This document shows positions 14,331-57,514 of a DNA stretch of 64,000 nucleotides, in pieces; positions within the stretch are counted from its first letter, which is position 1; each line of letters begins with the position of its first letter. The notes beneath the pieces were generated by a model. The model saw nothing but the letters and a program-made list of their open reading frames with translations, did no database searches and was not told the DNA's origin. The translations under genes and the position numbers were made by a program. The stretch spans positions 1 through 64,000 of the forward strand of contig NGBS01000333.1 of NCBI GenBank assembly GCA_002245135.1. Reading direction: 5' to 3'. Source of the DNA: Proteromonas lacertae. Lineage: Eukaryota.

Positions 14331-16046
14331 TTAGTATTGAGGAGGATATATTTTTCGAGTAGGAGGTGATTCTATAGTATCTATTATAAATATTAAGAAA
14401 AATCATCATAACCACGAAAGGAATAAATAAAAAGATATATTCTTGATATCTTGATTTAATTTCTTTCACATTATCAATACAACTCTGAATATAATCTTTA
14501 TCCATAAACTCAAGATAATGATGCAAAAACAATTCACTTTTAAACAACTTTTCACATTTTGATAAATAATTATCAAATACTTTATAAATACCACAATTAT
14601 TGGTTAATGTTAATAAAGATTGTTTCTATATATATATATATAAACATACACTTCCAATAGATGCTTCATTACAATGACCAGTTTTAAAACCTTCACTATT
14701 CCAATAAATCATTTTCAATTCATTTTTCAATCTAAACAACATTCATTATAATAGCAATAAAATAAAACTATACTTTTCAATATTTCTATTGATATCTGAA
14801 ATCATTATATTTCCTCTAAACATTAATGAACAGGATAGTATCGTGGAAACTCTTGGATCAATTTCTAACAACTGATTTCGACTATAATAAGAAAATAAAT
14901 AGCAAAATAATAATTAAAACAAATTATATACAATTTAAATGCATCACTAACCATTGTATCTACAACTTTTGGCCCACTTTGTAATTCCATATTCTTATAT
15001 GTATATAAAGGAGAAATGGAAGATAATAGAAAATGTAAATGATTATAAGGAACCATATTTGTAATAATTTCATTTATATCGATATTCATTGAACCATTGA
15101 ATCTCATTCCTGCTGTTATATCTGTAATCTAGTGACAGATATACATATATATATATATATATACAACTTTACTTGCAATTGCATTCATATCATCATAAGC
15201 TTCACTTTTTGATATTTTCTTATGATCTGTTAATATATCACTTTTGATTTCTTTTCCTTTACATTTCTTTGCATTTTGTTCTTTTATGATCTCTGATATT
15301 TTGATTAATGATTGATTCTCTATTGGTAATACACAATCTGCACATTCTATTAATTGACTATGTATGTTATTATATATATATATACTTTAATGATAATATT
15401 GAATTATATGGAGAAACAACAACATCATCAGCTTCCGATGGAAATACAGATACAGTAAATCTATATGTCGATTTATAATTATCATATAATTCTTTTAATA
15501 TCCTACTCCCTAAACCTGAACCTGTTCCACCACCTAGACTGTGAATTAAAAAGAAACATTGAATTGAATCGCATTGTTCTACTGCACAACGAACTGTTTC
15601 TAATAATTTATCATAGTAAAGATTGCCATATTCATAAAATCCTCTACCCCAGTTGTTTCCACTACCTGATACATCTGTTAACCTTAGATTTGTGTCAAAT
15701 AATTTGCCTAAAGGTGATTTCATTACCTATATGATAGATAATATTATTTAATACTCTGCCAACTACTCCTTCTTCCATATCAACTAACACAGATCTGGCT
15801 TTAAGTGTATTGATTTTGTTTCTTCCTTCACCTACAGGAATATCTTTAGGTGGACTATATTTAGTATCGACATTACGGAAGAATGAAGACATTGAATCAC
15901 TAAAATACCCTGAATCTCCTTGTTTCTACAAAAACTGTATTCAAACTATATACTTTTCCATATTCTGACAAAGCTAATTCCCAGAATTTACATCCTATCT
16001 GGTTTCCACACTGACCAACTTGAACAGTCACTATTTCTCTAGGCAT
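14331..16046 (-). CDS. TUBE1: Epsilon-tubulin
   Basis: Motifs [78 protein letters not shown] and FLHHY. The last intron is proposed to be of the AT-donor (U12) type, so the 3' end depends on that model. Confidence 0.9.
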
Positions 16047-16101
16047 TTTTATTTTATCGATCAAGCTTTTTGGTTCGATTTGTTTCATTTTTTTCTTTTT
16101 C

Positions 16102-16671
16102 ATGAGGACTTTCGAGGAAATAGTGTGTTTGCTGTTATTGACAGGAATACAATATGTAGTGTTTAGATCATCAGATATATCTTTTTCTTTAATAATATAT
16201 ATTTGTTTCTTAATTGTTTTATTTGACTGAAGCAACTCCATTTATTGTTAGATCAATTTTAGTTTATGCCTCCATTAGAATAGGATGGGAAGTTATTGCA
16301 TTTATATACAAATCGTTGGAAAAGACTCACATTACCAGTATTTGTTGTGAATATAATTCATAGGATGGATTTCATATATACTAATTACATTAAGTGGATT
16401 GGCATGGTTCTTTATTACAAAATCACACAAAACAGCTTTGTATTCTTAATTACCAAATATTACCTCTTTTAGATATAAACTAATTGTTAAATACAGTTCA
16501 GAGACATTAGGGATAATGCTTTCTCGTCTAGTTTATGTTTTGAGAGATAAAATGCTTTTGGTGTTATACTATTTTGATGTAATAATGGTTGCTGCAATAC
16601 TTTATGATTTAATCAGCAAAATATTGTATTATGTTGGAGTATTTGCATCAAATAAGGTTAAAAGAGAATAA
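16102..16671 (+). CDS. Small multi-pass membrane protein, TMEM147-like; absent from the ORF track
   Basis: Spliced model [40 protein letters not shown]...|[16 protein letters not shown]...|YKLIVK...NKVKRE*. It uses two GT-AG introns (16338-16363, 16440-16472) and one AT-donor intron (16177-16222). The TMEM147 resemblance is from memory of its N-terminus (..YKCSGLSE). Confidence 0.6.
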
Positions 16672-17056
16672 TTTTTCTAATTGCTTTTATTTTTGTAGAT
16701 TTTTGTTTTGTGAAAAGTAATAATAATCATATAACTCTTTTTCAAGTTTAAACTTCTAAATCTTATTAAATACTTCGATAGATATAAATAAAAATATAGT
16801 CGTTACATATTTTTTCAATTTAGTTTATTTAAGAAAAATAGAATAATCTAACATATCTATTAACGGTACATAATATTATTCAATTTAACCTAATATATGT
16901 TTAATTATGAAAGTGATAGATTAATTAATTCACTAGATTTACAGTAGAAGGCTGTTTTAAAATTATAATCAACAGTATTTAACTATGAGAAGTATTACTT
17001 CATGATAAATTTATTGAATTAATTGATTTATTGAATAAAACTACCATCTTAAATAA

Positions 17057-19202
17057 TTATTCATAATGCATATATGATATTAATTCTATTAAACATTTTG
17101 ATCCTGGTTCACAGCATGGATATAATGGAGAAGGTAAATCTTTAACAAGTAAAACAGGAGATGAATTATTATGACTTATCCAAAATTCTCTTTTATTCAT
17201 ATCAACATTCACTTCATAAATTGAACCATCTCCACAATCATTGAAATATGGATTTTTATTAACAACTCTTCCAATATTACAATATTCAGTAGAATCTAGA
17301 CTTCTACCATTTTCTATAGCATATCCACATGAATAAAACTCATAATTACCATAATATCCTCCACACATTACAATAGATAAACTAAACGATAGTGAATCAT
17401 TATCTGATCTATTTTGCAAAAATTTATACACAAAACGATATATCCCCCTTTCCATCTTTATCTCAATGAAACAATGATCATTAATATCATCATCATCATT
17501 ATTACTATCATTATTAGTTATTATTTTGCCATTATAACAGACTGTCACATATTTATTTTTATATTCCTTAGAAAATACAATATTTTCATAAACTAATGTT
17601 ATTTTATATTCCAAATTGTTAATCATATTATGACATCTTACTAAATATTCAGTGTTATTAATTTTTTTATCAATACAACCATTAATTTCTCCTGTTTCAG
17701 AATTTAACATAATTCCATCTGGTAATTGTGGTTCTATTGAAAATTTACAATGTTTACCATCATATGTTGGTTTAATTGAGAATTTGCCATATACTTTTAT
17801 TATTGATGAAGGATAGGTAAATGAGGTAACTTTTATTAATTCTGATATTATTTCTTTATTGTACACTGTTTTTATCATCATTTCATATTCATTATCATTA
17901 CAAATTTGATTTCTTATATAAGTGATTAATTTTTCTTTTATATCATTAGTTAAATAACAGCAGTAATTCAATATATGAAAGAATATTTCTATTCCACATA
18001 AATATCTAATTGTTGATATAGTATCTGTATCTTTAATGAATAAACAAAAGCATTTATATAATCTTTCACTTTCATTGGATTTATATTCATTTGCTAATAA
18101 CATAATTAGATTAGACATTTCTTCTTTACTAATTATTTCATCTACATTTTCATTTCTCATTTTACTATCAAGAATGATCATCATGCTTATTTCTTTCATT
18201 TTTATATCTTCATGTTGTATTAGCATTTCTATTACCTTCTTTACATCACTCTTTTCTAATACTTCTATATCTCTTTCTTCTATTAATATTAACTCATCTT
18301 CTATATAATATTTAAATATTATTTCTTCTATCTCTTTATCTTCTATCTTATTCAAATTAATGAATATATGATTATTATTTTTATTATTACTTTTGTAAAA
18401 CAGTTTTGACAAACTCATTTTATCTTTTATAAAATCAACTTCTCTTGGTCTTAATAATCTCATCTCTATTTTATCAAAATTAATTGATTTTGTTATTAAA
18501 TCTATATATTCATTCTCTATTTCAATCTTTTCTTTTTCATTATATATTTCTTTTTCCATTTCTTTTTCATATTTTTCGAACAAAATATTAAATAACCAAT
18601 TCTCATTATTCTTTATATATTTCATTTCTTTTATTATTATTCTCAAATCTTTCAATTCTAATTCATTCAAATATTCTTCTTTCAATAGTTTATATCCATT
18701 TTTCTTGACATAATTATCAATTATAACCTTTACCTCTCTTATCACTTCTTTCATTCTTTCAATATTATCTTCATATGCATTAATCATTCTTATCAGTTTC
18801 ATAATGACTTCTTCATTTAAATGTTCTTTTATAAACTTCAAACAACTTGGAATTACTTTACATTCATTATAATAAATACATGTTGATAGCATGTCACATA
18901 CATTATTCTGATTTATATTCATACACCCTCCACTGTAATACTTTTCTAGCTCAAAAAATGATTCAATACTACAATCCTCATATAATTCAATAACATTGCC
19001 ATTTTCACTATTTTCTATCAATTCTTTGAATATAGGGTTTGAAACTATGAAAACGGCCTTTGAACTAATAATTTCTTCTCCTCCAACTAAAACTTTTAAA
19101 TCTCCAAAGCCTTGATTTGCAATTTGTCTGCATAGTCTATTTTTGTTACATTTAATATATATAATACCCATTTTCACTAATATATGAATCAGATACTTTC
19201 AT
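17057..19202 (-). CDS. BTB/POZ + Ig-like (He_PIG-like) + SPRY-like domain protein
   Basis: BTB-like FGDLKVLVGGEEIISSKAVFIVSNPIF, Ig-like FSIEPQLPDGIMLNSETGEING, and C-terminal GSIYEVNVDMNKREF..LPSPLYP. A short first exon MKVSDSYISENG is joined by a GT-AG intron. Confidence 0.7.
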
Positions 19203-19403
19203 TTTAAGAAATGCAAATTGTTACATAATAATGACAATGTCAATGTAAATTGGTATTAATTTCATTTTTCTAATCACAGAGTTGCTATAGATAAACAAAA
19301 ATGTTATAATTCTAATGCATGTGTTCTGATGATAAGTATGATTCAACAATTGGGTATTAATAACAATGAAATTAAAAATTAGAGTATTAATGAAGATATA
19401 TAT

Positions 19404-22204
19404 TTATTTATTAGCAATATTTAAAACACGATTTGCAGTAATATAAGCTTTATACACTGCTTCTTTCTTTTTGAAATCCTTCTCAGTTGCGTATAGTGTG
19501 TTATCTATAATGATTTTACATTCGTATTGATCATCTGAAAGTAATGTACATTCAATAGACATATTCATTTTATTCTCCTGAACATAAAGCTGTAGATTAG
19601 TAGCAGGATGGTGTTTAATATTATCAATATTCATATGTTTAGACAGAAAAGGTTCCATTATTCTATGTACAACTTGAATTGTCTTGTTTATTCCACCATC
19701 TAATAATACACCTCCAATTAAAGCTTCAAAAGTATCACTTAATACTTTCCAGGTTATATTTCTATTTCCACATCCAAATTCATCTATTTTTTCAATTTCT
19801 AATAATGTAGAGGAAGGACATAAAGGAGAGATTGTTTTAAATTCACTTCCATTTCCAAAATTAATTTGACCTTTTCTTAACTTTTCAATCTATTAAATAT
19901 ATATAATCATGAATATATAAATACATATTCATCAATTTTGGAATGATCAGTTGTTGTATCTATCAAAACATTATGTAATCCTAAAGAACAAAAGATATAG
20001 CATTGTGCTTCATTTGATGTTAAGTTAGCTCTTAGATCTATATAAATATATATACTCTTTATCATATATACCATATATAATAAGTGGAGTTAATGATTCT
20101 TTATATTTGGAATAAATATCTAAAAATAATATCCAATCTAATATTGCATCACCTAAATACTCCAATCTCTCGTGATATATACTCTTTGAAAATGATTCAT
20201 ACAGAATTCTTTTATCATCAAAATCATAATCCAATATACTTTCAATGTTATGTTTTCTTACAATTTCTTCTTCCTCTTTAAACTCTTTATCATGATGAAT
20301 TGTTGTATGACAATAATGATTTATATTTAACACAGCTACAACATAAGCATAATAATCCTTAAACTGTTCTTCCATTATATAACAAATAAAATACACTGCC
20401 AAATCTACTGAATCTTCATACAAAGCAAAGGTAATAGACTCTATAACATCTGCTATTGTTTTTCTACTAAATTCAATTTCACATTTACTATCTAAATCAG
20501 GAGTAAACCATTCTCTTGGATAATTTGTTCTTTTTATCAGTTGATCAATTTTAAGTTTCTTACATTTTTTGCTAAAGTAATTATTACTTGTAATTAATTC
20601 TCTCATTTTGCTCAATTCACCTTCATTACTATTCTTTGATTTGTGGAAGAAAATAATAGAAGCAATTACTTCATATAATTTATCACCCATTGTTTCAAAT
20701 ACTTCATAATTCTCTTTACTATTATATTCTGAAGGAGTTAAAGCAATTCTTAAATTGTTTCTTAGTTTATTTATATCTTTGCATCTTTCAATAAAATGGT
20801 ATTTATTGAATAAATATTCAAATTTCATTGCCCATTCAAATTCTATAAGTAATGTCGGTAACTTAAATACCAAATTATCAATATCACTTCTAGAATGAGT
20901 AATTACTAATAACTCTGGTATAAATAAATCATTTCTTTCTTTTTTCTCTTTCTTTATACCATTTTCTTCTTTTTTTTCTTCATTACAATCATTCTTTGTG
21001 TAGATTTTTATCTTAGTTGATCCACAAATATTAGATGCATATATTAGTGGTTGATTAGGTTTTGGATTTATATTGTATTTCTCTCTATAATAATCTGTAT
21101 ATGTTGGGAATCCTTTGACATTAAATAGAGAAAGAGGAGTTGAATTATGTTCAATACTTTTTAAGAGAATTGGACATCTATAAAGATATATATTTTAAAT
21201 ATGTGTGATAATACTTTCTTAGATTCTCATCACCATATGTTCTTAATGCATAGCAATCTTTAATATCTCCATGTTCGTTTATATAATCAAGTACATTCAT
21301 ATTATCATCTATATAATAATATATAAAATAAATAAATAATTAATACAGTTCTTTGTTGATAGTGTTTTCTGTATTTGTTTCATATCCAATGTATTATCAT
21401 CTTCTTTTAAAATACATATTAAGTAATCTTCATTTTTCTTTTTCTTTATAGTTTCATCATCTAGGTTCTTTGACTGGTTTAATTTGGTAAATAACAAATT
21501 GGTATATATTTCTATGAGAAATAATTGTTTAGAATCTAATTCTATTCTTTTAATGTATTTCCAATTTGCTATTGTCTTATTCTCTTTTTCGTACAAAGGA
21601 AATGAATAATCTATACTTATTTTACATTTGCAAATTACTCCAATATTCTCTACAATAAAATGATATCCTGAATTTGGTTGAAAGGTCAAAGAATAAAGAT
21701 AATATTCTGATTTTTGTGGAATGAAAGACATAAATTTATCATAGCTAATACTAGACATTGATGTTTGATGATGATGTTTTTGTTCAACTGGTTTAGATGG
21801 TATATTTCGTTGTTTAGATGATGCATTATTCTCTATTGAATGCTCTTCATTACTATTTACTGTCATGGTAACAGCTGGTTCTGAATTTTGTTGTAATGCT
21901 GTTTGTTGAACAGCATATCGTTTCTCCAGTATTCTATCAGGGTAGAATTTACATATTATCTTTTTTGCTAATGCCTAAAATGATAAATTTTCAAAATACT
22001 TCTTTAGCTGAAGCTTCTGTAAGAGTTTTAACTTCAAAGTTTTCCTCATGGTATGTATAATGACATGTATATCCCCTATCACCATCACTGTTTGAATTAA
22101 TTCTAATTGTCTATATAAAAGTCTTTATACTCAAAGCTAGGTATTTTCTCATTATTCTCGGTACATATATTCACAAATAGTTTGTAATATGAAGCGTTTG
22201 TCAT
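19404..22204 (-). CDS. Dicer-like RNase III (PAZ, two RNase III domains, dsRBD; no helicase)
   Basis: PAZ-like TYTDYYREKYNI..QPLI..LFIPELL; RNase IIIa YEVFETMGD..ADVIES; RNase IIIb ERLEYLGDAILD..SDTFEALIGGVLLD; C-terminal dsRBD-like HPATNLQ..KKKEAVYKA. The 5' exons are uncertain. Confidence 0.85.
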
Positions 22205-22395
22205 AATTTAGGGTTGGTAAAACAAAAGTAGAAATATATTACATTGAATGTCTCATTTATTGGAATGGAAAGAGTTATTCACTGTGACAGCAATAACATA
22301 ATACATTTGTAATATGTCTGACATCCCAAAAAACAGATTTAATAATATCATATATATTAAAAGAAAGAGAATAGTGTTACATTAATATAATATAT

Positions 22396-23535
22396 TTAGT
22401 TTTCTTTGATCCACTTGTCTTCTTTATAACGATATGTCCCTGGCTCTGTGATTTGATATTCATCACTTTTCACTGTCTTATTACTTATAATTACACTGCA
22501 TTTTGAAACATCGAGTTTATATTGAGCAATGCCATTATTAGTTGTTAATTTTACACCTGGAAAATTAGGACAAACAGTTGGAGAACAATTCCAGAAATAT
22601 CTATCAGAAAATATAGAAATTAATAAAGTACATGTATGGTTCTTCAACATCTTCAACTATTATAATCACATCTCCTGTATTTTCACTATCTACATCTGAT
22701 ATATGATGTTTTCTCTCATTAATTATTGGTTGTAGTTTTTCATAACACATATCAAATACTTTCTTCATTAATATTATAACAATAGCCCAAATAAATACCC
22801 ATATAGAAAAAATCATGCCTGGAATACCATAACAGCTGTGATTAATATCATCACATTTGTTCTGTACAAATTTACAACAATCAGAGATGTGGTAATAATT
22901 ATCTATCACTTTGGCTCTTTTATATACCTTAAAATGTCTATCTAACTCATCACAACAATTCAAGATTATATCTCCTGCTTGTTCTATATTGATGTATATT
23001 AATATATGTTGATTATACTTTTCACACCATATTGTTCATCAAGTTCTTCGGCTTTTTCGACTGTTTTTAAAGCAGCATCACGTACATTTGTTGCAATTGT
23101 TGTCATTGGTGTTCTATAATATACAATTAATAAATATATGAATAATAATAATATCTCATACTTCATGAATTCTTTTATTTTCTCTATATTAGCAGCTTGT
23201 CTCTTTTTAATTTCAGAATACTTCTCTGATACATTATTCATTTGTTTTGGCACTTCTTCTGATACTTTATCGTATATGGAAATTAATGGGACTATAGCTT
23301 GTTGAAGTTTTGATAAATCCTTCTCATCTTTCATGTTCTGTCTGGTCTCTTGGATGACCTTTGTTGCATTTTCAATAGCAGAGTTTATTGAATCACTAGC
23401 TGCGCCTACAATTCCTTTCTCTTTTACATTTGTTTTTGCAACAGCAACCATTTCTTCTAAACCCTTGATCACTTCAGTGGCATAATTCTTAAGCTGTTCT
23501 CTTGGTGTAACACCAGATTCAGATGATGAACTCAT
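22396..23535 (-). CDS. Hypothetical single-pass membrane protein with helical N-terminus
   Basis: Three ORFs join in frame through short GT-AG introns. There is one hydrophobic segment (MIFSIWVFIWAIVIILM). Confidence 0.6.
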
Positions 23536-23802
23536 AATGAGAGAAGAAATTTATGAAAAATGATTTTTTTGATTTGAATGGTTTGATATTGGCTTGAAAT
23601 TATCTAATTTGTACTTTTATCAAATACTTGATTTTTAGAAAGTGTATACCAATTGCATTATTGTAGTGATGATTTATATGGAATATAATAAATGTATTTC
23701 TGAAAAACAACTGTAAGTGATTAACAATGATTCATATAGTGTATTTAATAAATAATATTACCTTCAATGAAACAAAAATCAATAAAATAATGTATGATTT
23801 AA

Positions 23803-24658
23803 TTATGGTAAATTATCACACTTATTGTCTTTTAAAAACTTCCACATACGTTCTTGAAAGGTAGACAAATATTGTTCAGTCTCTTTAATCAAAGGAATAA
23901 CCTAATATTACAATAAAAAACACAAAAATACTTTCTCTTTTGGTAAATCACCTTGTAAAGCAGTCATGAATGTTTCTTTGTATGGGCAAGCAACTAATGA
24001 AGTCTATTTGAATGATATTATTTCTTATAATCATTATACTGAAAAGGTTGTTCTGACAATCCAAGTATGATGAGGTCCTAAACACTTTTCATAGGATTCT
24101 CTACATATAGTACTTAACTCATCCTCTGTTCTTTCTACTAAACCTTTTAACATATCTTCAACAAAATCAATAAACCACATTAAACGAAGTATAGTTCTGG
24201 AACTACAACAGTAGAATTTACCTTTACCATTATAACCGTTATATCCTGTCTCAGTTGTACCCATGTCAATATCAATACGAATCAATTGCTAGATAATAAA
24301 AAACAAAAATGATGTACTTCCAAAGTGACTTCTTCTGGAGGACAGTTTATTTTTTCTAATAAGTTATAAATAATAATATTTTATACTCAACTCAATCATT
24401 TCATTTCTTCTGTCTCTCAGATTTTGTATTTTCGTTAAAACGTCTGAAGTGGCAAATGAAAATGCGATACCAAGAGTTCCTATATGTCATATAAGCAATA
24501 TACCGAATATAAGAGTAATCTCTTCCTGAATTGATAAAAATAGATCTAATTTAGTCTCTCCAGTCACTGCAGCTATTTGTTCAGCAAGTCCTTTTGCACG
24601 TTCGAGATTAAAAACTTTTTCTAATAAAAATCATGAGAAGAATAATACGTTCTGACAT
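23803..24658 (-). CDS. Glycolipid transfer protein (GLTP/ACD11 family)
   Basis: Spliced LGIAFSFATSDVLTKI..SSRTILRLMWFIDF..SYEKCLGPHHTWIVR..ACPYKETF, with six short GT-AG introns. Confidence 0.85.
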
Positions 24659-24788
24659 TCTTTCTTTTTAATGATTCAAAACGGCTATAATTGTTGAAAC
24701 AGTGAAATTATAAAACATCCTTTTGTCGATATGTTATAATAAATCAATCTTAACTAACAACCAATAATAAAAACATAATAATAAAAAT

Positions 24789-25731
24789 TTAGATAATCTT
24801 CTCCATTTCTGGATGCATAACTAATCATTTTATCAACTATTGCTTGAGCTGGTACAACTGGAGCTGATTTCTGAGGTGGAGCAAAATAAATTATATTGTT
24901 ATTGATGATCCAACCTTTCTAATCATCAAATTAAAATAAAAAATGTATAAATATAAATATATACAGCTCCTGCTATCTGTTGTATTATTGACATGTCATT
25001 GATCATCAACATATTTAATAAAGCTTGACATGATAACTGCTTATATGATTTCTCAACACAATTAGTTATTTCATTTCTAACTGATTGCATTAAAGGTTCT
25101 AATAAGCAGGTATAATATTTATTTGGTGAATTTTTATATAAAGATGTTATCTACACTATAAAAACAATGCACTATACCTTATTGTAAGAACCATCTAAGA
25201 TACTTCTTTCAATTAATAATGGGAATGCGATATATGCATCTTTAAATTCAGCTTCACTAATTGACTCCAACTAAAAATAATACATTAATGAATAGAAAGA
25301 ATTATACCCAAGTGTGAAAATCTGCAAGTCTATTCTCTGATATTAAGTATAATAAATGCAAACCGATATGGAAGAGACTTCTTGATTGTGGATAAATCAT
25401 GTAAATTGAGTTTAATAATGCAAAATGTCGATCAACTTGTTTATTATTCGTTATTACATCATATAATAATGCAGTTTCATATGTTTCCTCTAAATATATT
25501 TAACATAATTTTAATATACTTGCAATTTCATATTCTTCCTTTTGAGTTGGTGATTTGAAACAGAATGGAGGCAATGATGGGAAATTAGAAACAGCAAGCT
25601 ATATTATAATTAATATAATATAATACCATTAAATCAGCAAGAAGTGGAGCAGATTGTTCAGCAGGTGCAGAAGATTCAATATTCTGTTTGAACTGAGCGA
25701 GGGCCTTTTTAATTTGGTTTAAATCAGTCAT
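24789..25731 (-). CDS. RPN12: 26S proteasome regulatory subunit RPN12/PSMD8
   Basis: Spliced IGLHLLYLISENRLADFH..FPLLIERSILDGSYNK..VRNEITNCVEKSY..MISYA(x)EMEKII*. A 1-nt insertion is apparent near 24812. Confidence 0.85.
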
Positions 25732-25902
25732 TTTGATAGCAAAAGCTTAATAGGTAATGAATAAAAGCAAGAAGAAATTATTCAAATTTCTTGAAACGAA
25801 TACTTTAACGAATATAATTTTTGAATTATGTAAAGAAAAAAGAAATAAATAACAAGTATATCAAAACTTTATCAAATAACAATGAAGAACACTTTATAAA
25901 AA

Positions 25903-27443
25903 TCAAAACCATATTTTATTTGAAGGTGTTACTATTGTCAGATTTACTAAAGGCTGTTGTTTAAATCCATAACTTTCCAAACACTTACTTAACTTTTTGA
26001 ATCCCAAATATTTCTGTATTTCTAACTTCTCCCCATACTTCTCTTCATACAATGAAGAAATTCTTGACAGTGGACATTTATCAACACTATAATAACAATA
26101 ATATAGGCAATATATATACGTTTTAACTATATATTCTAATCTCAATAATATTCTATTTTTATTAATTTGATAATCAACATGTTGAGCTACAGAGTCATAT
26201 TCGCTATCTAATCCTTGATCTCTGTTATATGCTTGTATGTCTTTAATAAGTTGTTCTCTGCCAACATCGTCCATTGTTTTACCTGGATATTTCTTATATA
26301 ATTCGTTTATTGGTAATGGAATTTCCCATTTTTCTTCTTCTCTAATTAAATAAATAAATAAATTTATATTATTATTATATATAAATATATATACGGCTCA
26401 GATTGTTGTTGTTGCTGTTGTTCATAATTTGAATTAATGGAACTGTTATCTGAATCTGATTGAGGTGATGATGATGTATTATTATTAATATTATTATTAT
26501 TACTGTATGGATGTTGTTGTTGTTGTTGTTCAGAGGTATTTGTTGGTTCTATATCATAACTTGCCCATGCTTTATCTCTACTATTAGAACTACTCCAACT
26601 ACTTTCTTGTTTATTGTTATTATTATTATTATTTAATAATGGAGTAGCAGTAGATGTAATAGATGTTTGTTGCTGTTGTAACATCGGAGGTAATGGTTGT
26701 TGTTGTTGAATAGGTGGTGATGGTTGTCTATTCAAATCATTTGATGGACATTGTTGTTGTATTGATGGTACTTGCATTATTGGTTGTCTCTGCTGTTGTA
26801 GTTGTGGTGGTTGTAATGGTATTATTGGAGGTAATGGTTGTTGTGATTGCTGTTGTATTTGTGGTTTAATATCTTGATATTGGATTAATGGAGGTTGAGT
26901 TGAAATTCCTGAACCATCTAAGTAATTTCTATTACTGTTATACATATTATCTCTAGATCGAGAATAACTATCATCACGATAATGACGGGATCTTCTTCTT
27001 GCAGAAGGAGACCTTGATCTTGATCTAGAACCTGAATAACTTCTAGAATGTCTTCTTTCTCTATGATTAGAATGACGGGATTGGCTATGATGGTAAGGGG
27101 AAGGAGAACAACGAGATCTTTCATTATTATACCTATAATAATCTCTATCAGATACTCGGGGTGGAGAATGATAATTTTGAGAAGAACGAGATATATAGGC
27201 ATCATAACTATCATTTCTTGTATCATAATTGTAATTGTTCTTCAAAAATGCACTAATGACTGGATCGTTTCTACATTCACCAGTCATAAGATTTTTTTTA
27301 TCTAACCATGCGTATATTTTACCACAACTACACTTCAATTCTTTACCAGCCATATTTCCATCCACAAATACAATATACGATTGGGGTGCTTCAGGCAATC
27401 TAGGCATGTCATGATCTGGATTCTGGTTGTTGTTGTTATACAT
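25903..27443 (-). CDS. RS- and Q/P-rich protein with C-terminal LOTUS/OST-HTH-like domain
   Basis: SRSRSRSPS tract, poly-Q/N tracts, and C-terminal PLSRISSLYEEKYGEKL..YLGFKKLSKCLES. Two introns; the start codon is uncertain. Confidence 0.6.
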
Positions 27444-27521
27444 TCCACAGTTCAAGATCTGAGGCTGACTGTCATTTACAGAATTACATTTTCAGTACGT
27501 TTGAGCTTGATTTGCATTAAA

Positions 27522-28102
27522 ATGAAATTTTCTCTTTTTCTAGCTGTATTATTCATATCAGTAACTATTGTTGCTGCCCAAGAAAAACCAGTATTATATT
27601 CTTTGTATTTACAAATTAGACTGTTTTAGTTGTTCCAGTTACAGTAGGATCTGTACAATATTTATTAAAGGTCCGTGAAGGAGACACTGTATTTTTAATA
27701 AGTTACTTGAATAGATAAGAGAAGCAGCTTTACGTTTTATCCATGAAAACAGTTTATCCGAAGAAAGCTACAATGAAATTGCAGATGGCATTCAAAAGAA
27801 ATGGCAAGAAAGAACGCATAATTATTTTAGTATTATTTTATCAATAGAAACAATCCAAATCCAAGAAAAGCTCAAATTCCAGTAAGTATCAACGCTCTTA
27901 TTGATATTGATGAAACAAAAGGAGAAGATGCTTTATTAGCTGCAGTTCGTTTTGTTGAAGAACACGGATTAGATTATAATCAAATACCACAATTAACTCA
28001 AGTTATAGAAAATTATCTTGAATCTGCTGTATATTATTCCATTTTAATGTTTAGAAACAAGAAGAAGCTGCTCAACAAAAAACTCAACAAACAAAGAAAT
28101 AG
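27522..28102 (+). CDS. Small secreted protein with two internal repeats
   Basis: Signal peptide MKFSLFLAVLFISVTIVAA, then repeats VPVTVG..EGDT..AALRFIHENSL and IPVSIN..GEDALLAAVRFVEEHGL. Four introns, one of them GC-AG. Confidence 0.7.
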
Positions 28103-28264
28103 AGAAACGGATTTAATTTTTTAAATGACTTTTATTTTTTGAATTTGGGAATTAAGAACATCATATTAATTTTGATCAATACATCTTAAAAAACGTTTAC
28201 ACTATCTTATTATTAGTAATAGTTTAAAAACACAAGACTATATATCTTTTCCAAATATTACTGT

Positions 28265-31200
28265 ATGGATTCAAAAGAAGACTTTTTATTTGATTATAAA
28301 CCATCAGAAAAAGAAATAATTGAAAGTAAGGAGAATAATGCTGAAAAACCAAAAATTGCTACGAAACCACTTACAAGAACCACTAAACCAGTCACTTCAA
28401 AACAATCTTTTTTATCTAAACCTATAACAAAACCAACAACAGCTACTACTACTGCAAAGAGAGAAGGGCAAAGAAGATTTCTATAAAGATCCTGTAATAG
28501 TAACAAATAAACCAACAACAACAACTACAACAGCAAAACCATCAACTGTTACTAAACCAACAACAGCAGCAGCAAAGAGAATATCAGAAGGCAAAGAAGA
28601 TTTCTTTAAAGATCCTGTAATAGTAACAAATAAACCAACAACAACAACTACAACAGCAAAACCATCAACTGTTACTAAACCAACAACAACAGCAGCAAAG
28701 AGAATATCAGAAGGCAAAGAAGATTTCTTTAAAGATCCTGTAATAGTAACAAATAAACCAACAACAACAACTACAACAGCAAAACCATCAACTGTTACTA
28801 AACCAACAACAACTGCAGCAAAGAGAATATCAGAAGGCAAAGAAGATTTCTTTAAAGATCCTGTAATAGTAACAAATAAACCAACAACAACAACTACAAC
28901 AGCAAAACCATCAACTGTTACTAAACCAACAACAACTGCAGCAAAGAGAATATCAGAAGGCAAAGAAGATTTCTTTAAAGATCCTGTAATAGTAACAAAT
29001 AAACCAACAACAACAACTACAACAGCAAAACCATCAACTGTTACTAAACCAACAACAACTGCAGCAAAGAGAATATCAGAAGGCAAAGAAGATTTCTTTA
29101 AAGATCCTGTAATAGTAACAAATAAACCAACAACAACAACTACAACAGCAAAACCATCAACTGTTACTAAACCAACAACAACAGCAGCAAAGAGAATATC
29201 AGAAGGCAAAGAAGATTTCTTTAAAGATCCTGTAATAGTAACAAATAAACCAACAACAACAACTACAACAGCAAAACCATCAACTGTTACTAAACCAACA
29301 ACAACTGCAGCAAAGAGAATATCAGAAGGCAAAGAAGATTTCTTTAAAGATCCTGTAATAGTAACAAATAAACCAACAACAACAACTACAACAGCAAAAC
29401 CATCAACTGTTACTAAACCAACAACAACTGCAGCAAAGAGAATATCAGAAGGCAAAGAAGATTTCTTTAAAGATCCTGTAATAGTAACAAATAAACCAAC
29501 AACAACAACTACAACAGCAAAACCATCAACTGTTACTAAACCAACAACAGCAGCAGCAAAGAGAATATCAGAAGGTAAAGAAGATATATTGGAAGTAGAG
29601 AATGTAAATAATAAAGTTGATAAATCAGATAATAGTAAAGATGTTAAAAATGAAAGAAAATCAAATAGTAATGAAAATTCTGTTAAAAGAATATCTGAAG
29701 GAGAAGAAGATTCAAACCAAAATAATGATAATAAGAATGAAATAGCTGCTGGAGATACGTCAATTCCTCAAACTGCAAATAATGGACTTAATCCAAATAA
29801 TGGTGAATATTTGAAAGAAGAAAAGCCAGACAATGAGCGTGAAGTTGATGAAAATAATGAACAAAAATCCAGTTTAAAAGAGAGTCAACCTGAAAATCTT
29901 TGTACAATTGATGAAATTGAAGATGAAGAATCTTTAGCTGATATTATTCCATCAACTAATGAAGTTGAGACAAAGAATAAAGAGAATGATGATAATAACG
30001 AAGAAAAAACATCACCAAAAAAGAAACAAAACATAAATCAAGAAGCACAACAAGCAAAACAAGAAGAACAAAAACAACAAAGTGATGATCAAAAGCAAGA
30101 TGAGAATAAAAATAATGAAAATTCCAATGTTATTGATAATTTAATATCACCTACAGAAGAAGATAATGTAACTGAAGAAAAACCTCATCCCAACATCAAC
30201 ATACCAAATCAAGTTAATGAAATTGATGACTTGCTTGTTGAGAGTAGTGAAAGTATTTCAGTTTCACAAACTCATAAGCCACTACAAAATAGAAGAATTA
30301 ATCAATTGAAACATGAGAGTCACAGTAGATCAGATGATTTTAAGAAAGGAAAGAAGCACAATTCCTATAACAGTGAATCTCCCTTGAATCAATATCCAGC
30401 TGGTTTGCCTGATGATACAAGTTATGAACATACAAAATATCCAACACATTTACAGAATGGTTTTGTTAAACCATCAATAAGAATAACAGAAAGTATGGAA
30501 GTTGTGCCAAGTCTTAATTTTGATAATCAACAGAATGAACCTTTATCTCCATATAATCCTGTTAAATGCGATTATAATGAAAGTTTGAAGAAACTGAGGA
30601 AAATTACTCCAACAAGAATGTATAATCAATTAGATGATATGATGTCTCCTTTAAAAATGTATATAATTAATATATTTGCTTTTTGTATAGATTTGCTGGT
30701 TATACTACTCCTGAATATTATGATCATGACATCTTAATAGAAAAACAAAAGATAAAAGAAACGCAACCACTTAAATATGCAATTGATTTCTTTGGACAAT
30801 ATATAAAGTGTGAAAAAATAGAAAAATTAAGTGATGAAGGAGATGAGTATGTATTAGTAAATGGAAATCAAGCGATTAAAACAATAGATATAATTACTGT
30901 TGAAAGAAAACCAATTGAATATTCTGCGAAAGATAAAATTCTTTATACAACAATTGGAGGTATTATTTGGTCAGAAGGCATAATTATGAAGATATTACCA
31001 TCCAATAATAATCTTCAAATTCAAAGTCTTGAAACAGGTAAATTATTAATATTAACTCCTAATGAAATCAGATTATATGAAGATCATATTCTCTACCAAG
31101 AATGTGATGAAGTTGATTGTTTATATACAAATGGTCAATGGTATAGTGGAATAATAAAATCATGTCATCATGGAAAGAACAATATATCAACAAACAATAA

Positions 31201-32164
31201 ATACTCAGTAATTTATGATGATGGAGATACAAATGAATATGTTGATTTTGTAAATATAAGACAGCATTTTATCAAAGGAGATATTGTTATTTATTGTAAT
31301 TCAAATACCTACAGTAGTAATTTAGGTAGTACACTTAATAATATAAGAGTTAAATGGTATATTGGTAAAATAGTGGAAAGGACAATGAATAATAAATATA
31401 CAATTTATAATAAAGAATATAATATGACTTTAGAAAATATAAGTTATAATGACATAAGGTATTATAGAGATTATGATTTCAAAGTAAATGATGAAGTTAC
31501 TGTATTATATTCAAACTTAGTTTGGTATAAAGGAAGAGTAATTAGAGCAAAATCTAATAGATTGTATGATATATATTTAGATTATGGTGATATTGTGTTT
31601 AATGAACATCCTTTTAATATGAGGAAAATATATGATCCACGAGTATTTAATGTTGGAGATAGAATAGTATATGGTGTTCAATATTTAACTGGTATTGTAA
31701 ATAGAGTGAATGAAAGAAATACATTTAATGTTTATTGTGATAATGGATTGTATATTGAGAATGTTACAACTATGGATATTTTATATTATCAACACTATGA
31801 TAGAGAATTGAAGTTTAAAATTGGTGATATAGTTAGAACTGGTTTGAGTAATAATGGTGACTTGTTTACTGGTGTTATACAGAATATTAATTATGCTGAT
31901 CGAACTTATGATATTCTTACTGGTATTTTCTTTCAAGATCAATATCATGAAGATGGTATAGCTTATAATTGTATTGAAAGGAATATTCAATATGAAACAG
32001 AAGTTGAAGATGACGAATTTGAAGAACCAGGTGAAATAAATGATTCTTTATCTACAGCAAGCACACCAGCTAATAAAGAAAGACCTGATTTATTAGAACA
32101 GTCATTGAAAAGATTCAGTGTTAGTTATTTATCAGTAAGATCTTCAATATTTTCACCTTCGTAA
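28265..32164 (+). CDS. Protein with 41-aa Thr-rich tandem repeats, low-complexity linker and tandem Tudor/Agenet-like domains
   Basis: After an extra G near 28467 the + frame is open through the repeats into ORF 29589-30737. An intron at ~30659-30690 joins ORF 30683-32164, which has repeated (D/E)V..LY..G.WY.G.I..Y.V.YDDGD modules. Confidence 0.7.
28463..29585 (+). repeat. 123-bp coding minisatellite, about 9 near-identical copies
   Basis: GATCCTGTAATAG recurs at 28488, 28611, 28734 and so on to 29472. The unit encodes EGKEDFFKDPVIVTNKPTTTTTTAKPSTVTKPTTTAAKRIS. Confidence 0.95.
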
Positions 32165-32297
32165 TCTAAGTATAATTGAATTTTTGTGATAACAATATTT
32201 TAATTTGAATAACATTCCTTTATTTGATGAGAAAAATTCAAAAAATAAAAAGACAAGATCTGTCCGATTTCTTTTAGCCGTTTTTAAAATCGTTTAA

Positions 32298-34891
32298 ATG
32301 TCAGAAGAGAAGAAAAGCGAATCAAAAGTATAAAATGATAATATTTTATGTTTAGACCAATGATGTTGATGTTGATTCGGTGACAGAATTATCAAAAATT
32401 CGAGATGTGGTTGAAATTTTTCAATCGGCAATAACAGGATTTACAGATCATACCAAAGATGGACTGAGCAACATCCAAACAGATACAATGGCTGAATTAC
32501 ATACACTACAAGTATTTTTGTTTGATAGTTAATCTTTTCATTAGACAGGTTCATTGTTTAATATTCTTCAAGGAGACAATCCAGATGAAGAATTAACTGC
32601 ATTTAATGAACAGACAGAACAATTAGTGTGGAAATCAATGAGAGAAGCTCAAGAACTAACTCTAAATACATTTTCCGATTTACAAGGTAAATTAACAGCA
32701 TTATTTAACCAAGAATTTTCCAATTTATCAATGAAATACTCAAAACAATATGTATGGGCAAAAGAGACAATGGATAGAAAGATAAATAATGTTAGACTAG
32801 CTCATGAATCTCAGCTACTTACGTACAGAATACAATTAGAAGAACACAATAGAATGGAGCAAGATACAATCCGAAGACAATATGAACAAAGTATAAAAGA
32901 AATGGAAGATACAATTGGTGAGAATTTAAGAAAGACAAAAGAGGAATTAGAAAAAGTGACAAAAGAAAGATCTGCCTTAGCAAATGTACATCATGAGATG
33001 GTACAGAGACAGAAGGAATTAGAAACAGCAATAGAGAAGATGGCTAATGAAAGAGATAAAGCATTAAAAGAAGCTACAAAGATTGCTGAACAAAGTGTTA
33101 AAACTGTATCACAATATGATGATTTAGGAACAAAGTATATATTTATATTCATTATTATTATTATTTTATAGATATAAATCCATATTACCTGAGTTGCAAA
33201 TATCACAAGCTCAAGCTGCTGAATTGCAGGAGAAGTATGAAGCATCAGAGAAAGAGAATAAAGAATTGAAAGTATTAGAATATTAATTAATATTTTATGA
33301 TTAGAGAACTTTAGAAATAAAAGAAAAAGAATTACAAAAACAGAAAAGAATAAATGAACAACATGAAAGAGAAATTAATAAATTAAAAGAGTATTATATT
33401 ATACATATCATATATAATATTATAGTAATATAAAACAATTGCAAGCAACAATCAAGAAACAAGAAACTTTAATAGAAAAGTTACAATTTTCAGAAAAGAG
33501 ATTTGAACCAGTTAGAAAAGCATTGGAAGCACAAATAGAACAATTGAAACAACAACTACAGAAATATATGCATAGTTTAGATGTAATGAGTGCAGATGTA
33601 TATTCTTCAATTTTTATAGTATTAGTACAAAGTGATATCTGATCAATTGAATTTGAAATCTCAAGAATGCGTTAATTTATCAAATGAATTATCAGATTTA
33701 AGAAGAAAATATAACGAAGTTGCTGAAAAACTATTGAGTTTAGAAGAAGGATTAAAAGGAGTAATGTCAAATCCAAATATTGATGATGCTTCAAAAGAAG
33801 ATGTTAATAGAAGATTAAGTGAATTCTCAACTCAATTCAGAATCAATGTAGAACAAGAAGCACAGAATTGTGTTACAAAAGAAAGAGTTGAATATATTAA
33901 ACAAGAATTGAATGAAAGATTATCTAGACAAATATCATTAAAATCAAGAGAATCAACGTTTCATGATTTTAAAACAGTTCCAGGTCAATCATTATCAAGA
34001 GCTTCAACTGCAGATTCATTGAATGCTGAAAATAGTAACAATAATGGATCTCAAACAGATTTTCAAAGATTGTCTACTCCTCAAGCATTTGTTCCTCAAT
34101 CTAGAATTGAAGAATATAATATATCTTTTCTTTTTACTTGTATGTTATAAAGATGATAAGTTTATCTTTAATTCTTATGTAATTGAAATTAGAAGAGTTA
34201 AATCTTAGATTAGAAGATAAAGACACAGAATTAGAAGCTTACCAACAAGCAATACAAGAGAAAGAAGCACATATTGCAGAATTGATATTATTAGTTCGTT
34301 CACAGAAAGACGATATAAACAGATATCAAAATATGGTAAATACTAAGATAAGTGGTAGACAAGTTGGAATGAGTATAACAGGAAGGCAAGTTGGTGGTGA
34401 TTCAAGATCGCCTTATATAAGATCATTTAAATCTGAATTAGGAAGATTGAGATCTACATCACCTGTTGTTTTACCAGAAAGAGCAGAAACTGTATATTTC
34501 TTATTTTGTTTATTTTATTATTTATTAGAGTCTATCTGCTTTACCACCATTCAAATGTAAGAGTGTTAATTCACCTACATCTTCATCAAGTTATGGTAAA
34601 TCATTACCTGGTGCTATTCAACCTCCATTACCAAGAACAACTAAAATACCAGGACATGTTAAATATGCTGCACAATTATCACTGCAAAATAACTTCATTG
34701 ATACTTATAGTGAGGTTTATCCATTAGATAGTGAATGTTATGCAAAATATCAAGGGAAGAAATGGATGAAAGGAACAGTAATTAGAGTATATGGGAATAA
34801 TTGCTTTGATATATTGTTTGAAAATGGTAGAAAAGAATCAAGAGTGAGTGGTGAAAGAATGGCAAAAGAAATAGGTGAAATAAGAATATAA
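32298..34891 (+). CDS. Long coiled-coil protein with C-terminal Tudor-like domain
   Basis: Several coiled-coil exons are joined by short introns. The last exon ends ECYAKYQGKKWMKGTVIRVYGNNCFDILFENG..IRI*. One junction (34121-34182) requires an AT-donor intron. Confidence 0.7.
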
Positions 34892-40972: not shown

Positions 40973-41500
40973 ATGCCATCTACAGGCCATTTTTACTTTA
41001 GATATTAGTATAATACAAACAATATTTATATTATCTTGCATTTTAGTGTTGGTCATAAAGATAGAGTTAATGGACACGAATTTATGGAATATGAGTTTGA
41101 TCACGATGGTCATTTAAAATATGCAAATAGTTCTCATTATAAAGGAGATTTTCAAATTAGAAAAGAAGGTATAAATACATTTCTTATGTAACTGTGATAA
41201 ATAGCATATGTAACAAATGCAGTGTTGAAAGAATTGCAGCAAATGATAGAAGAAAGTCATATTATGGATTGTGATGATTCAAACTGGCCAGAACCAAATG
41301 AATTAGGAAAACAAGAACTTGAAATTAGATATGGTGATTATCATATTTGTTTTACATGTTCAAAGATAAATACAATGGGTGAAATACAAAAAAGTAAAGA
41401 TGTTGATGGATTAACGACCTTTTATTATTTAGTTCAAGATGTTCGTAGTTTAGTATTATCACTAATTGGTTTACATTTTAAGATTAAGCCAATACCATAA
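40973..41500 (+). CDS. MAGOH: Mago nashi (exon junction complex)
   Basis: [69 protein letters not shown], with two introns. Confidence 0.95.
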
Positions 41501-41784
41501 TTTGTATCTTAATTCTTTTAATTTTTTGTTTAACCCAATAAATGAATATATTATTAAATAATATCATAGACATACATACATATTTATATGTGTTATTAAA
41601 TCATCATTTCAGGCGTTAGTGGTTTTTCTTCTTCCATTTGTCTAACATATTCATTCAACCATTCTTCAATCTATAAATAACATTAAATATAAACAATATG
41701 AATATTATACTTTAACAATATTGTGATGATCCATTAATCTTTTACTAACAACAATATGTTGGAAATCATCTCTACAACCTTCAT
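41442..41784. repeat. Direct repeat, left copy (mago nashi 3' end, intergenic, lipase 3' exons)
   Basis: Near-identical to 45548-45877, differing by a 12-nt deletion in the right copy and a few small changes. Confidence 0.92.
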
Positions 41785-41867
41785 TTGTTATTAATGAATG
41801 ATTTTATTTTCTTACTGAATTAGTTATTGAATACATACTATGATCAAACTGCTGATAGAAAAATAAG

Positions 41868-45547: not shown

Positions 45548-45877
45548 TTCGTAGTTTAATTGGTTTACATTTTAAGATTAAGCCAATACCATAATTTGTA
45601 TCTAATTCTTTTGATTTTTTGTTTAACCCAATAAATGAATATATTATTAAATAATATCATAGACATACATACATATTTATATGTGTTATTAAATCATCAT
45701 TTCAGGCGTTAGTGGTTTTTCTTCTTCCATTTGTCTAACATATTCATTCAACCATTCTTCAATCTAAAAATAACATTAAATATAAACAATATGAATATTA
45801 TACTTTAACAATATTGTGATGATCCATTAATCTTTTACTAACAACAATATGTTGGAAATCATCTCTACAACCCTCAT
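45548..45877. repeat. Direct repeat, right copy
   Basis: Matches 41442-41784. It holds an orphan mago nashi 3' end ([11 protein letters not shown]) and the functional last exons of the lipase. Confidence 0.92.
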
Positions 45878-54300: not shown

Positions 54301-54448
54301 TCATCCTTCAATTAGTCCACAGAATCATTCTTTACCAAATTGTAGTTCTCCCATTAGTAAAATTGTACATAGTAGTATTACTGATGCAAATTCATCACCT
54401 GTTGCTAAAGATGAAATTACTAATAATGAGAATTCAGTACCTGTTTAG
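48356..54448 (+). CDS. Four-domain voltage-gated Ca2+ (Cav/Nav family) channel alpha subunit
   Basis: Four 6-TM repeats with S4 segments (LRTFRVLRPLR, LRSFRLFRLFK, LRALRAFRALRPLR, VRMFRIGRIFR), pore loops TLEGW/AIDNF/TTEGW/TGEIW, and an EF-hand-like C-terminus. Four short introns; the 5' end is uncertain. Confidence 0.92.
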
Positions 54449-54508: not shown

Positions 54509-54951
54509 TTAAATGTATGGATTATTCACAATCAAGTCAAGTGGTTGATATGAATGATTCTTCTGTAAGTTATGCTGGTTCAATATTTACTGTTTAAATT
54601 AATGACTATTTTGTATTTTATATTTTTACTTTTTTTTTATAAATGAATAATAAAACGAAAATAAAATATGTAATATTAATGAAATTAGTTAATAAAGGAT
54701 AATGTAGTAATAAAAATAAAAATGAAAAAAGGGCTCAGCCGGGAATCGAACCCGGGACCTCTCGCACCCAAAGCGAGAATCATACCACTAGACCACTAAG
54801 CCTACATCAAATTTATTGACAAACTCTGCATATAAATATCTAATAATACTTATTCAATTTTAATTTTTAGTTATGTAATACATAATATTTTGTCTATAAT
54901 TCGTGAAATAAAGGAAATGAAAATACTATTATTTTATACTAGATGATAATA
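54509..54951. repeat. Inverted repeat, left arm (orphan MEMO1 3' end + tRNA-Pro)
   Basis: Reverse complement of 55098-55540 with at least three substitutions; the spacer is 146 bp. Confidence 0.93.
54731..54802 (-). tRNA. tRNA-Pro(TGG)
   Basis: Reverse complement reads GGCTTAGTGGTCTAGTGGTATGATTCTCGCTTTGGGTGCGAGAGGTCCCGGGTTCGATTCCCGGCTGAGCCC, followed by a T-run Pol III terminator. Confidence 0.96.
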
Positions 54952-55097
54952 AAGATAATAAGTATTTTATAATGGATTTCTATATATAGACAAAAAATCA
55001 TTTACAAAAGGTAAAAAATGAAGATTATGTTATATTATAAATAATAGATAAAGATGATAAAAATTTAAAATTAATATTCTGAAAGACATTGTGTAAA

Positions 55098-55540
55098 TAT
55101 TATCATCTAGTATAAAATAATAGCATTTTCATTTCCTTTATTTCACGAATTATAAACAAAATATTATGTATTACATAACTAAAAATTAAAATTGAATAAG
55201 TATTATTAGATATTTATATGCAGAGTTTGTCAATAAATTTGATGTAGGCTTAGTGGTCTAGTGGTATGATTCTCGCTTTGGGTGCGAGAGGTCCCGGGTT
55301 CGATTCCCGGCTGAGCCCTTTTTTCATTTTTATTTTTATTACTACATTATCCTTTATTAACTAATTTCATTAATATTACATATTTTATTTTCGTTTTATT
55401 ATTCATTTATAAAAAAAAAGTAAAAATATAAAATACAAAATAGTCATTAATTTAAACAGTAAATATTGAACCAGCATAACTTACAGAAGAATCATTCATA
55501 TCAACCACTTGACTTGACTGTGAATAATCCATACATTTAA
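55098..55540. repeat. Inverted repeat, right arm (tRNA-Pro + true MEMO1 3' end)
   Basis: Reverse complement of 54509-54951. Confidence 0.93.
55247..55318 (+). tRNA. tRNA-Pro(TGG)
   Basis: Identical 72-nt cloverleaf with TGG anticodon, GTTCGA T-loop and a downstream TTTTTT. Confidence 0.96.
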
Positions 55541-57422: not shown

Positions 57423-57514
57423 AATATATATATGAAAGAAATACATATCAATATTTTCAATCAATAATGCAAATAAATATAAAAAACGATAATTCATTTT
57501 TAGAAAATTCTAGA

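Follow-up and report, generated by a model that had tools for sequence, protein, structure and literature searches.

AT-AN introns are a named subtype of minor introns, with AT-AA and AT-AT among the accepted U12 ends (PMC8280824; PMC1557818; PMC10639083), and the choice of the 3′ site in U12 introns depends on its distance from the branch point, with an optimum of 11–13 nt (PMC3584512). The nearest published set is that of Blastocystis ST1, in which minor introns are RNA-supported and all four minor snRNAs are present (PMC5608401, PMC10639083). Donors there read ATATCC in 336 rows and ATATCT in 3 rows (PMC5608401), and our tally of 150 rows of S11 Data of PMC5608401 gave 90 AC, 50 AG, 6 AA and 4 AT ends, with A as the penultimate base in every one of these rows. 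In Physarum polycephalum, U12 introns with non-canonical ends number 1,014, among them AT-AA (27%) and AT-AT (8%) (bioRxiv 10.1101/2020.10.12.336362).

Here, three segments in a 64-kb stretch of DNA (hereafter the window) are likely to belong to a known class, the A-type (AT-AN) U12 introns. As a whole, we give a probability of roughly 70% to the reading that these are AT-AN U12 introns in which the minor spliceosome cuts at the first A-N some 8–10 nt past a branch box, whatever the last base. AT-AN ends themselves are already known; the unusual part is that all three predicted ends are AA or AT.

Shared signals and the intron background

The original prediction described three genes, each with a junction, a common donor, a box and a segment of 46–62 nt, and all three were found in place with these signals. 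Each segment starts at its 5′ end with ATATCTTTT, its donor being read as ATATCTTT, and carries a branch-like box, TTCTTAAT in introns 1 and 2 and TCTTTAAT in intron 3. In agreement with that prediction, the best protein was obtained with a cut 8, 8 and 10 nt past the box in introns 1, 2 and 3, respectively, which gives predicted ends of AA, AT and AA, lengths of 55, 46 and 62 nt, and phases 1, 0 and 0. Cutting introns 1 and 3 at a closer A-N, 6 nt beyond the box, would put the exons out of frame, and neither intron 2 nor intron 3 offers an in-frame AC or AG within 24 nt of its box. The 8–10 nt threshold was set post hoc on three introns. Counted from the putative branch A, with ends that come from protein fit, the distances are 9, 9 and 11 nt; they fall between those of Blastocystis ST1 and the mammalian optimum, and the two putative 9-nt spacings are shorter than the 11–13 nt optimum of PMC3584512. 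The coding score of each segment fell below the first percentile of 270 coding windows, and the flanking sequence scored as coding.

The donor ATATCTTT departs from RTATCCTT by a single C-to-T change at +6 in all three introns and qualifies as a U12 5′ motif. The boxes likewise differ from TCCTTAAC by C-to-T changes and qualify as U12 branch motifs, a resemblance from which their branch-point role is predicted.

The 74 modelled GT-AG introns of the window are 24–53 nt long (median 33), with only 5 reaching 46 nt, and so the segments are, as had been claimed, longer than most. GTAT begins 71 of the 74, GTATC[CT] begins none, and none has a C-containing box; C at +5 and TTTT at +6 to +9 each occur in 3/3 segments as against 1/74 major introns. 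None of the three segments has the major GTAT...TAG form at 24–53 nt. Frame-joining GT/GC-AG alternatives number 3, 10 and 8 in genes 1, 2 and 3, and both signals are normal in just one of them (gene 1, 100 nt). Read-through of intron 1 stays open for a further 52 codons, and no stop compels splicing there.

The post-hoc motif pair of the original prediction occurred 3 times against 0.08 expected, with at least three occurrences in 0/300 local dinucleotide shuffles; a general U12-like pair occurred 4 times against 1.16 (10/300 shuffles), and looser pairs were at chance level (133, 156 and 237 of 300 shuffles). Enrichment of the motif is thus too weak to serve as proof by itself, and the real evidence is the position of the matches: RTATCYT with CTT(T)AAY has six matches, of which the three on the sense strand are the three junctions and the other three lie antisense within coding exons.

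We counted about 33–34 genes in the window, rather than the 25 or so first supposed, and about 95 introns. The high density that had been suggested was not borne out: at the rate seen in Blastocystis ST1 (346/35,412), finding 3 among ~95 introns has P = 0.07, and the window was chosen for these very introns. Gene finding restricted to GT-AG did go wrong in the manner foreseen, giving a false epsilon-tubulin tail, splitting gene 3 and losing gene 2. A gene model in which intron ends of every kind were permitted, at a heavy penalty, recovered 0/3 junctions, and therefore has no power to exclude further junctions of this kind. Runs allowing ATAT or ATATC...A-N introns found regions 1 and 3, the former with shifted ends, never modelled gene 2, and gave nothing else in the window except gene-end artefacts. 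An Rfam search of the window returned two tRNAs, one sub-threshold snoRNA match and no minor snRNA; a 64-kb stretch lacking minor snRNAs or minor-specific proteins carries no information on the whole genome. No protein derived from a transcript turned up.

The three host genes

On the sequence evidence, candidate intron 1 is the best supported of the three. It lies at 14384..14438 on the reverse strand, with its putative branch-point box at 14392..14399, as the last intron of an epsilon-tubulin gene (14331..16046, reverse strand; 474 aa, seven further introns, all GT-AG), and it alone gives access to the last exon (14331..14383), which scores +0.64 bits/nt as coding; the intron itself scores as non-coding at −0.10 bits/nt. 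Against a profile of 57 homologues, the AA junction ranked first among 41 options (66.3 bits; a TA end 65.9, AT-AG 62.0, read-through 56.4). It yields 20 residues from an invariant Tyr to the C-terminus (homologue median 21) and places Leu-Asp at +3/+4 past that Tyr, where homologues have Leu in 38/57 and then Glu or Asp in 41/57.

Three relatives (P0124–P0126), 81–88% identical across the alignment, read Tyr-Ile-Phe into the intron-1 segment; the codons of the donor are retained, divergence sets in after them, and the reading frames stop 6–12 residues past the exon. An intron that begins with AT and has T at +6 fits these Tyr-Ile-Phe codons, which exclude GT or a C at +6. The three were seen as protein only, and the ends of their reading frames may be contig edges. 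An ancient, conserved position is typical of U12 introns though not a defining trait. Intron 1 seems to be present in the close relatives, and none of 16 distant epsilon-tubulin loci (of 80 fetched, an intron-poor sample biased to uninterrupted matches) has an intron where it lies. In a quick-method tree of 45 rows, the epsilon-tubulin of the window fell on a long, unplaced branch.

Read-through of this junction, at almost 10 bits below the AA junction, and GT-AG introns of 32, 35 and 100 nt were rejected on homologue score. The 100-nt intron has two normal signals, yet it removes a conserved helix and scored 48.8 bits against 66.3.

Candidate intron 2 (16177..16222, forward strand; box at 16207..16214) is the first intron of a gene for a small membrane protein (16102..16671, forward strand) that also has GT-AG introns at 16338–16363 and 16440–16472. 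Read-through meets a stop at 16228, and removal of the segment, which is 11% GC and scores −0.29 bits/nt, leaves a complete open frame for a hydrophobic protein of 154 aa; all ten GT/GC-AG alternatives have donor scores below that of the weakest real donor. The last exon of gene 2 has relatives at 88% and 49% identity, with no confirmed homologue spanning the intron-2 junction. Relatives reading through intron 2 were looked for and none was found, and a metagenome scan for gene-2 relatives returned none. The protein may resemble TMEM147. Pfam, PDB and Atlas gave no backing for that name. Neither TMEM147 nor TUBE1 was found in eight supplement files of PMC6717393.

Candidate intron 3 (34121..34182, forward strand; box at 34165..34172) interrupts a gene modelled as a 767-aa coiled-coil protein with seven GT-AG introns besides (32298..34891, forward strand), which has only weak Pfam matches, all below cut-off. 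A gene model told only ATATC...A-N, and nothing of the box, recovered the intron exactly. Its AA end alone among seven in-frame ends keeps the heptad register, its composition scores −0.36 bits/nt, and the 150 nt that follow it, ahead of any Met, have a coding score of +82 bits. The case for introns 2 and 3 is built on frame, composition and heptad register.

Alternative explanations

The segments could be genuine U12 introns whose ends are partly conventional, with AA and AT a genome-wide minority as in Blastocystis ST1. A later in-frame end of intron 1 is possible, an AT-AG at 14381, 3 nt further downstream, used alone (58 nt) or together with the AA site; it lies 12 nt from the putative branch A, within the 11–13 nt optimum (PMC3584512), and AT-AG accounts for 50 of the 150 ST1 rows. 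With two of three ends left as AA or AT, the one-sided 95% lower bound of their share is 0.14. However, the AG end trails AA by 4.3 bits and would set Tyr where 0/57 homologues have it, introns 2 and 3 offer no such end near the box, and even two of three differs from the 10/150 of the ST1 rows tallied (Fisher P = 0.016). We consider partly conventional ends unlikely. Removal by the major spliceosome, as U2-type AT-AN introns, seems somewhat less probable. ATAT is a G-to-A variant of the GTAT donor that dominates here, and U2-type AT-AC introns are known, with 85 human major AT-AC or related introns (PMC8280824), but the C at +5, the TTTT at +6 to +9, the C-containing box and the greater length all match the minor class of Blastocystis ST1.

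Assembly error at junction 2, junction 3 or both would draw on at least six apparent single-base frameshifts in the window, and an exact look-up of eight window ORFs in a protein collection gave independent copies of 0/8. Segment 2 is 45+1 nt, such that one surplus base would turn an in-frame hydrophobic insert into the junction seen, and gene 3 contains a canonical GTAT...TAG intron of 53 nt (34140–34192), with ideal major signals, that would join the same frames with a stop at the join, where the gene could end or contain a base error. Against this, the coding score is −13 bits for segment 2 and −22 bits for segment 3, the sequence after intron 3 is strongly coding, a base error would not also create a matching donor and box, and intron 1 would be left unexplained given P0124–P0126; error of this kind is very improbable. 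Least credible is an origin of the segments by copying of a small mobile element, whether Introner-like or by the transposon route proposed for Physarum. AT ends 3/3 of the 5′ exons, and the intron-1 position appears lineage-specific, yet the intron middles share no similarity in any of the three pairs (best local scores 8, 11 and 13), unlike Introners, and intron 1 has diverged directly past the donor in close relatives.

Proposed 3′ site choice and comparison with known systems

Under the preferred reading of AT-AN U12 introns, U11 and U6atac would read ATATCTTT as the donor and U12 snRNA would read TTCTTAAT or TCTTTAAT, the C-to-T changes being tolerated as G-U pairs. The 3′ site would be fixed by a penultimate A and a minimum spacing, the cut falling after the first A-N dinucleotide about 8–10 nt beyond the box, and the last base may have drifted to A or T because the intron sequence is 90% A+T. 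Placement of the 3′ end of U12-like A-type introns by distance from the box, as originally put forward, is in this sense supported by inference. An AT-shifted minor spliceosome, also put forward, appears unneeded because the only departures from ATATCCTT and TCCTTAAC are C-to-T changes, and these would keep G-U pairing with unchanged snRNAs.

More tentatively, and at slightly less than even odds, the minor spliceosome of this lineage may have no last-base preference, with AT-AA and AT-AT normal genome-wide by mutation bias and the 3′ site set by branch distance and penultimate A only. Published surveys put non-canonical ends at about 4–7% of minor introns, not counting AT-AG in Blastocystis. 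Were AA and AT to dominate this genome, the rule pairing first and last bases (A with C, G with G) would be dispensable in routine minor splicing, and the spacing rule could be tested directly over many introns and over relatives of differing GC content. Loss of last-base preference would provide a natural genome-scale test of U12 3′ site choice and would leave a few per cent of introns unseen by standard annotation.

Like those of Blastocystis ST1, the three introns are short with an AT donor, exceed majors of ~30 nt, carry a box near the 3′ end, have a predicted penultimate A and variable last base (AA and AT included), and are commonly in phase 0. They differ in having T at +6, where ST1 has mostly C, and a box that ends in T, and in a box-to-end distance of 8–10 nt against mostly 5–6 nt by eye (about 4–8) in ST1; the 25 GTATCCTT introns of ST1 are ordinary introns of 29–33 nt. 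Their ends, predicted from sequence, are AA or AT in 3/3, against 10 of the 150 RNA-backed ST1 rows tallied (Fisher P = 0.0005). The relaxed 3′ choice of the original prediction is not new as such, given the AT-AN subtype (PMC8280824) and its presence in Blastocystis ST1 and Physarum; the difference lies in the AA/AT share. With Physarum they share the +6T donor class, and the branch motif there lies 9–12 nt from the 3′ site; unlike Physarum, which has a TTTGA branch motif and compensating U12 snRNA changes, the box here shows C-to-T changes only. Non-canonical ends are a small fraction of all introns in Physarum, and a large expansion is not shown here. In A-type introns of animals and plants, non-canonical ends make up about 4–5% of minor introns (PMC8280824; PMC1557818; PMC10639083), as against all three predicted ends here.

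Three AT-AN segments among GT-AG introns

Segments with a shared donor, a putative branch-point box and AA, AT and AA as their last two bases were found where the original prediction had placed them (3/3). They interrupt an epsilon-tubulin gene (gene 1; intron 1, 14438-14384, minus strand, 55 nt, AA end 8 nt past the box TTCTTAAT), a gene for a 154-aa hydrophobic protein (gene 2; intron 2, 16177-16222, plus strand, 46 nt, AT end 8 nt past its box TTCTTAAT) and a coiled-coil protein gene (gene 3; intron 3, 34121-34182, plus strand, 62 nt, AA end 10 nt past its box TCTTTAAT). All three begin with ATATCTTTT.

The case for introns is carried by the position of these motifs in the window (27.3% GC). 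The post-hoc motif pair of the original prediction occurred 3 times versus 0.08 expected and was matched in 0/300 local dinucleotide shuffles; a general U12-like pair was marginal (4 versus 1.16 expected; reached in 10/300 shuffles), and three looser pairs showed no excess over chance in 300 such shuffles of the window. RTATCYT with CTT(T)AAY matched six times, the three sense-strand matches all being at introns 1–3. The scan disregarded the intron's 3′ terminus, so an AT-AC intron with the same signals would also have turned up.

The first pass of a purpose-written small gene finder kept 74 GT-AG introns (24–53 nt, median 33), with 7 doubtful ones left out. Among these 74, none had a GTATC[CT] start or a C-containing TYYTTAAY box near the 3′ end, and one had C at +5. 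The major introns were unusually uniform (GTAT start, 71/74; TAG end, 73/74; about 9% GC). Later runs gave 33 genes and 90–92 GT/GC-AG introns, gene 2 excluded from the count; at about 3/95 introns (P = 0.07), the high U12 density that had been proposed was not borne out. Introns 1, 2 and 3 scored −0.10, −0.29 and −0.36 bits/nt under a coding model whose training set left out their host genes; among 270 coding windows the 1st percentile was +0.11, and the exons on either side scored +0.38 to +0.64.

Elsewhere, a four-repeat voltage-gated channel gene (48356-54448, plus strand; four Ion_trans domains and GPHH) was modelled with GT-AG introns only; animal voltage-gated channel genes of this family are typical AT-AC intron hosts. 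At 19404-22204 (minus strand) a Dicer-like gene, compact in size, has PAZ and RNase III domains. Nine near-identical 123-nt repeats at 28462-29585 (plus strand) each code for a unit of 41 residues rich in Thr, Lys and Pro; the gene that holds them has an Agenet/Tudor-like region at its C-terminus.

Junctions in the host genes

Read-through of intron 1 is open, so the intron is not forced by a stop. A C-terminal profile from 57/69 full-length homologues (12 were left out for an absent anchor or odd tails) was applied to 40 candidate 3′ ends and the read-through. The 55-nt AA end ranked top (66.3 bits), with a TA end at 65.9 and AT-AG at 58 nt at 62.0 bits; read-through (56.4 bits) and the GT-AG readings (58.4, 58.3 and 48.8 bits) were rejected. 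The AA end puts Leu and Asp at the third and fourth residues after an invariant Tyr, where homologues have Leu (38/57) and then Glu/Asp (41/57); the AG end puts Tyr at the Leu position, as in 0/57 homologues. Three close relatives available as proteins (P0124-P0126) match the exon, continue as Tyr-Ile-Phe into the intron 1 segment and then diverge, ending 6–12 residues past the exon versus 52 in the window, although some ends may be contig edges. The codons for these residues are consistent with a segment that starts AT and has T at +6; they exclude GT, or C at +6. An intron-free, epsilon-type tail in one open frame was found at 16 of 80 fetched tubulin loci (the others were other tubulins, cut short or not shown that far); intron 1 looks lineage-specific, in a sample biased toward uninterrupted matches.

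Exon 1 of gene 2, unspliced, meets a stop at 16228, and removal of the 46-nt intron with two GT-AG introns yields a single 154-aa open frame, which may resemble TMEM147, although searches of Pfam, PDB and the Atlas lent this likeness no support. Its last exon has relatives with 88% and 49% identity, so the gene is real. All ten GT/GC-AG alternatives had donor scores of at most 0.6 bits versus 1.5 for the weakest real donor, and an AC end 13 nt beyond the box does not keep the frame. The possibility of assembly error has to be taken into account, because the window contains apparent single-base frameshifts: the gene finder placed six in real-looking, otherwise intact genes (3209, 13559, 28466, 36005, 59951 and 60975) and a seventh within an antisense shadow model, and a further one was seen by eye near 24790. 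The six and the one near 24790 are probably assembly errors. A single-base error may also lie behind intron 2, the segment then being a 15-residue insert of gene 2, but its GC content is 11% and its score against coding −13 bits.

For intron 3, a gene model restricted to ATATC...A-N introns, with no box term, recovered the exact 62-nt intron and a single 767-aa gene, and this end alone of seven in-frame ends kept the heptad register across the join. The 150 nt downstream, ahead of any Met, scored +82 bits as coding. An overlapping 53-nt candidate (34140-34192, plus strand) counts against intron 3; it is a well-formed GTAT...TAG intron connecting the same frames, but its splicing makes a stop codon at the join. 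Were both spliced, major and minor splicing would compete, giving full-length or truncated protein. The remaining GT-AG options (65–137 nt) had poor signals.

The window also contains duplications. A perfect inverted one of at least 1043 nt (56384-57426 and 62958-64000), which carries the 3′ portion of a gene for a large membrane protein, is either recent or an assembly artefact. A 465-nt inverted repeat (54509-54973 and 55076-55540; 97%, arms 102 nt apart) carries a tRNA-Pro(TGG) gene in each arm, and a direct duplication of about 350 nt (41463-41809 and 45557-45902; 96% over 300 nt), comprising the 3′ end of a gene together with an intron, lies on both sides of about 4 kb of P-loop ORFs.

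Choice of the 3′ site

Canonical U12 signals, RTATCCTT and TTCCTTRAC, pair with snRNAs, according to a Physarum preprint (bioRxiv 10.1101/2020.10.12.336362). Departures from them in introns 1–3 are all C to T and would face what would be G; G-U pairing would suffice, so that the AT-shifted minor spliceosome originally proposed is not required. Ending introns 1 and 3 at their A-N site 6 nt beyond the box would lose the reading frame, and the first A-N at least 7 nt past the box is the best junction in 3/3, with a threshold set post hoc and three in-frame outcomes expected by chance about 1 time in 27. With introns that are 90% A+T, the probability of three AA/AT ends would be 0.74 if the last base were free to vary; under the rate seen in Blastocystis ST1 it would be 0.0003. 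We consider introns 1–3 most likely real A-type minor introns, a Blastocystis-type variant drifted to A/T (probability of the full reading about 0.7). That AA/AT ends are the norm genome-wide is a tentative suggestion, at slightly worse than even odds.

Comparison with known minor introns

AT-AN is a named minor-intron subtype (PMC8280824), branch points lie nearer the 3′ site in U12 than in U2 introns (PMC5378181) and optimal branch-to-3′ site spacing is 11–13 nt (PMC3584512). The Physarum preprint describes +6T donors, a motif 9–12 nt from the intron end, and AT-AA and AT-AT within 1,014 non-canonical U12 introns. A literature search for Proteromonas with U12 found no report, though the genus's genome paper, outside the results, may describe such introns; the available parts of PMC12129017 and PMC5953543 do not mention minor introns. 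A tree gave no placement for the window's organism; GC, introns of about 30 nt, ordinary stop codons and a flagellar tubulin would fit a Proteromonas-like relative of Blastocystis (27.0% GC in PMC12129017; an intron position and size common with Blastocystis in one gene, PMC5953543).

In Blastocystis ST1, 346 of 35,412 introns are U12-type, and the four minor snRNAs are all present (PMC5608401). The S11 Data of that paper give 336 of its introns an ATATCC start and 3 an ATATCT start; among the ST4 and ST7 rows covered (ST7 in part), no ATATCC intron occurs. Counted by eye in five blocks of 30, 150 of the 336 ended in AC (90), AG (50), AA (6) or AT (4), with lengths mostly 37–50 nt and the box about 5–6 nt from the end; AT-AG thus makes up a third (50/150), though termed disfavoured in a review (PMC3584512). 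The AA/AT share of introns 1–3 differs from that of ST1 (3/3 versus 10/150, Fisher P = 0.0005; with 2/3, P = 0.016).
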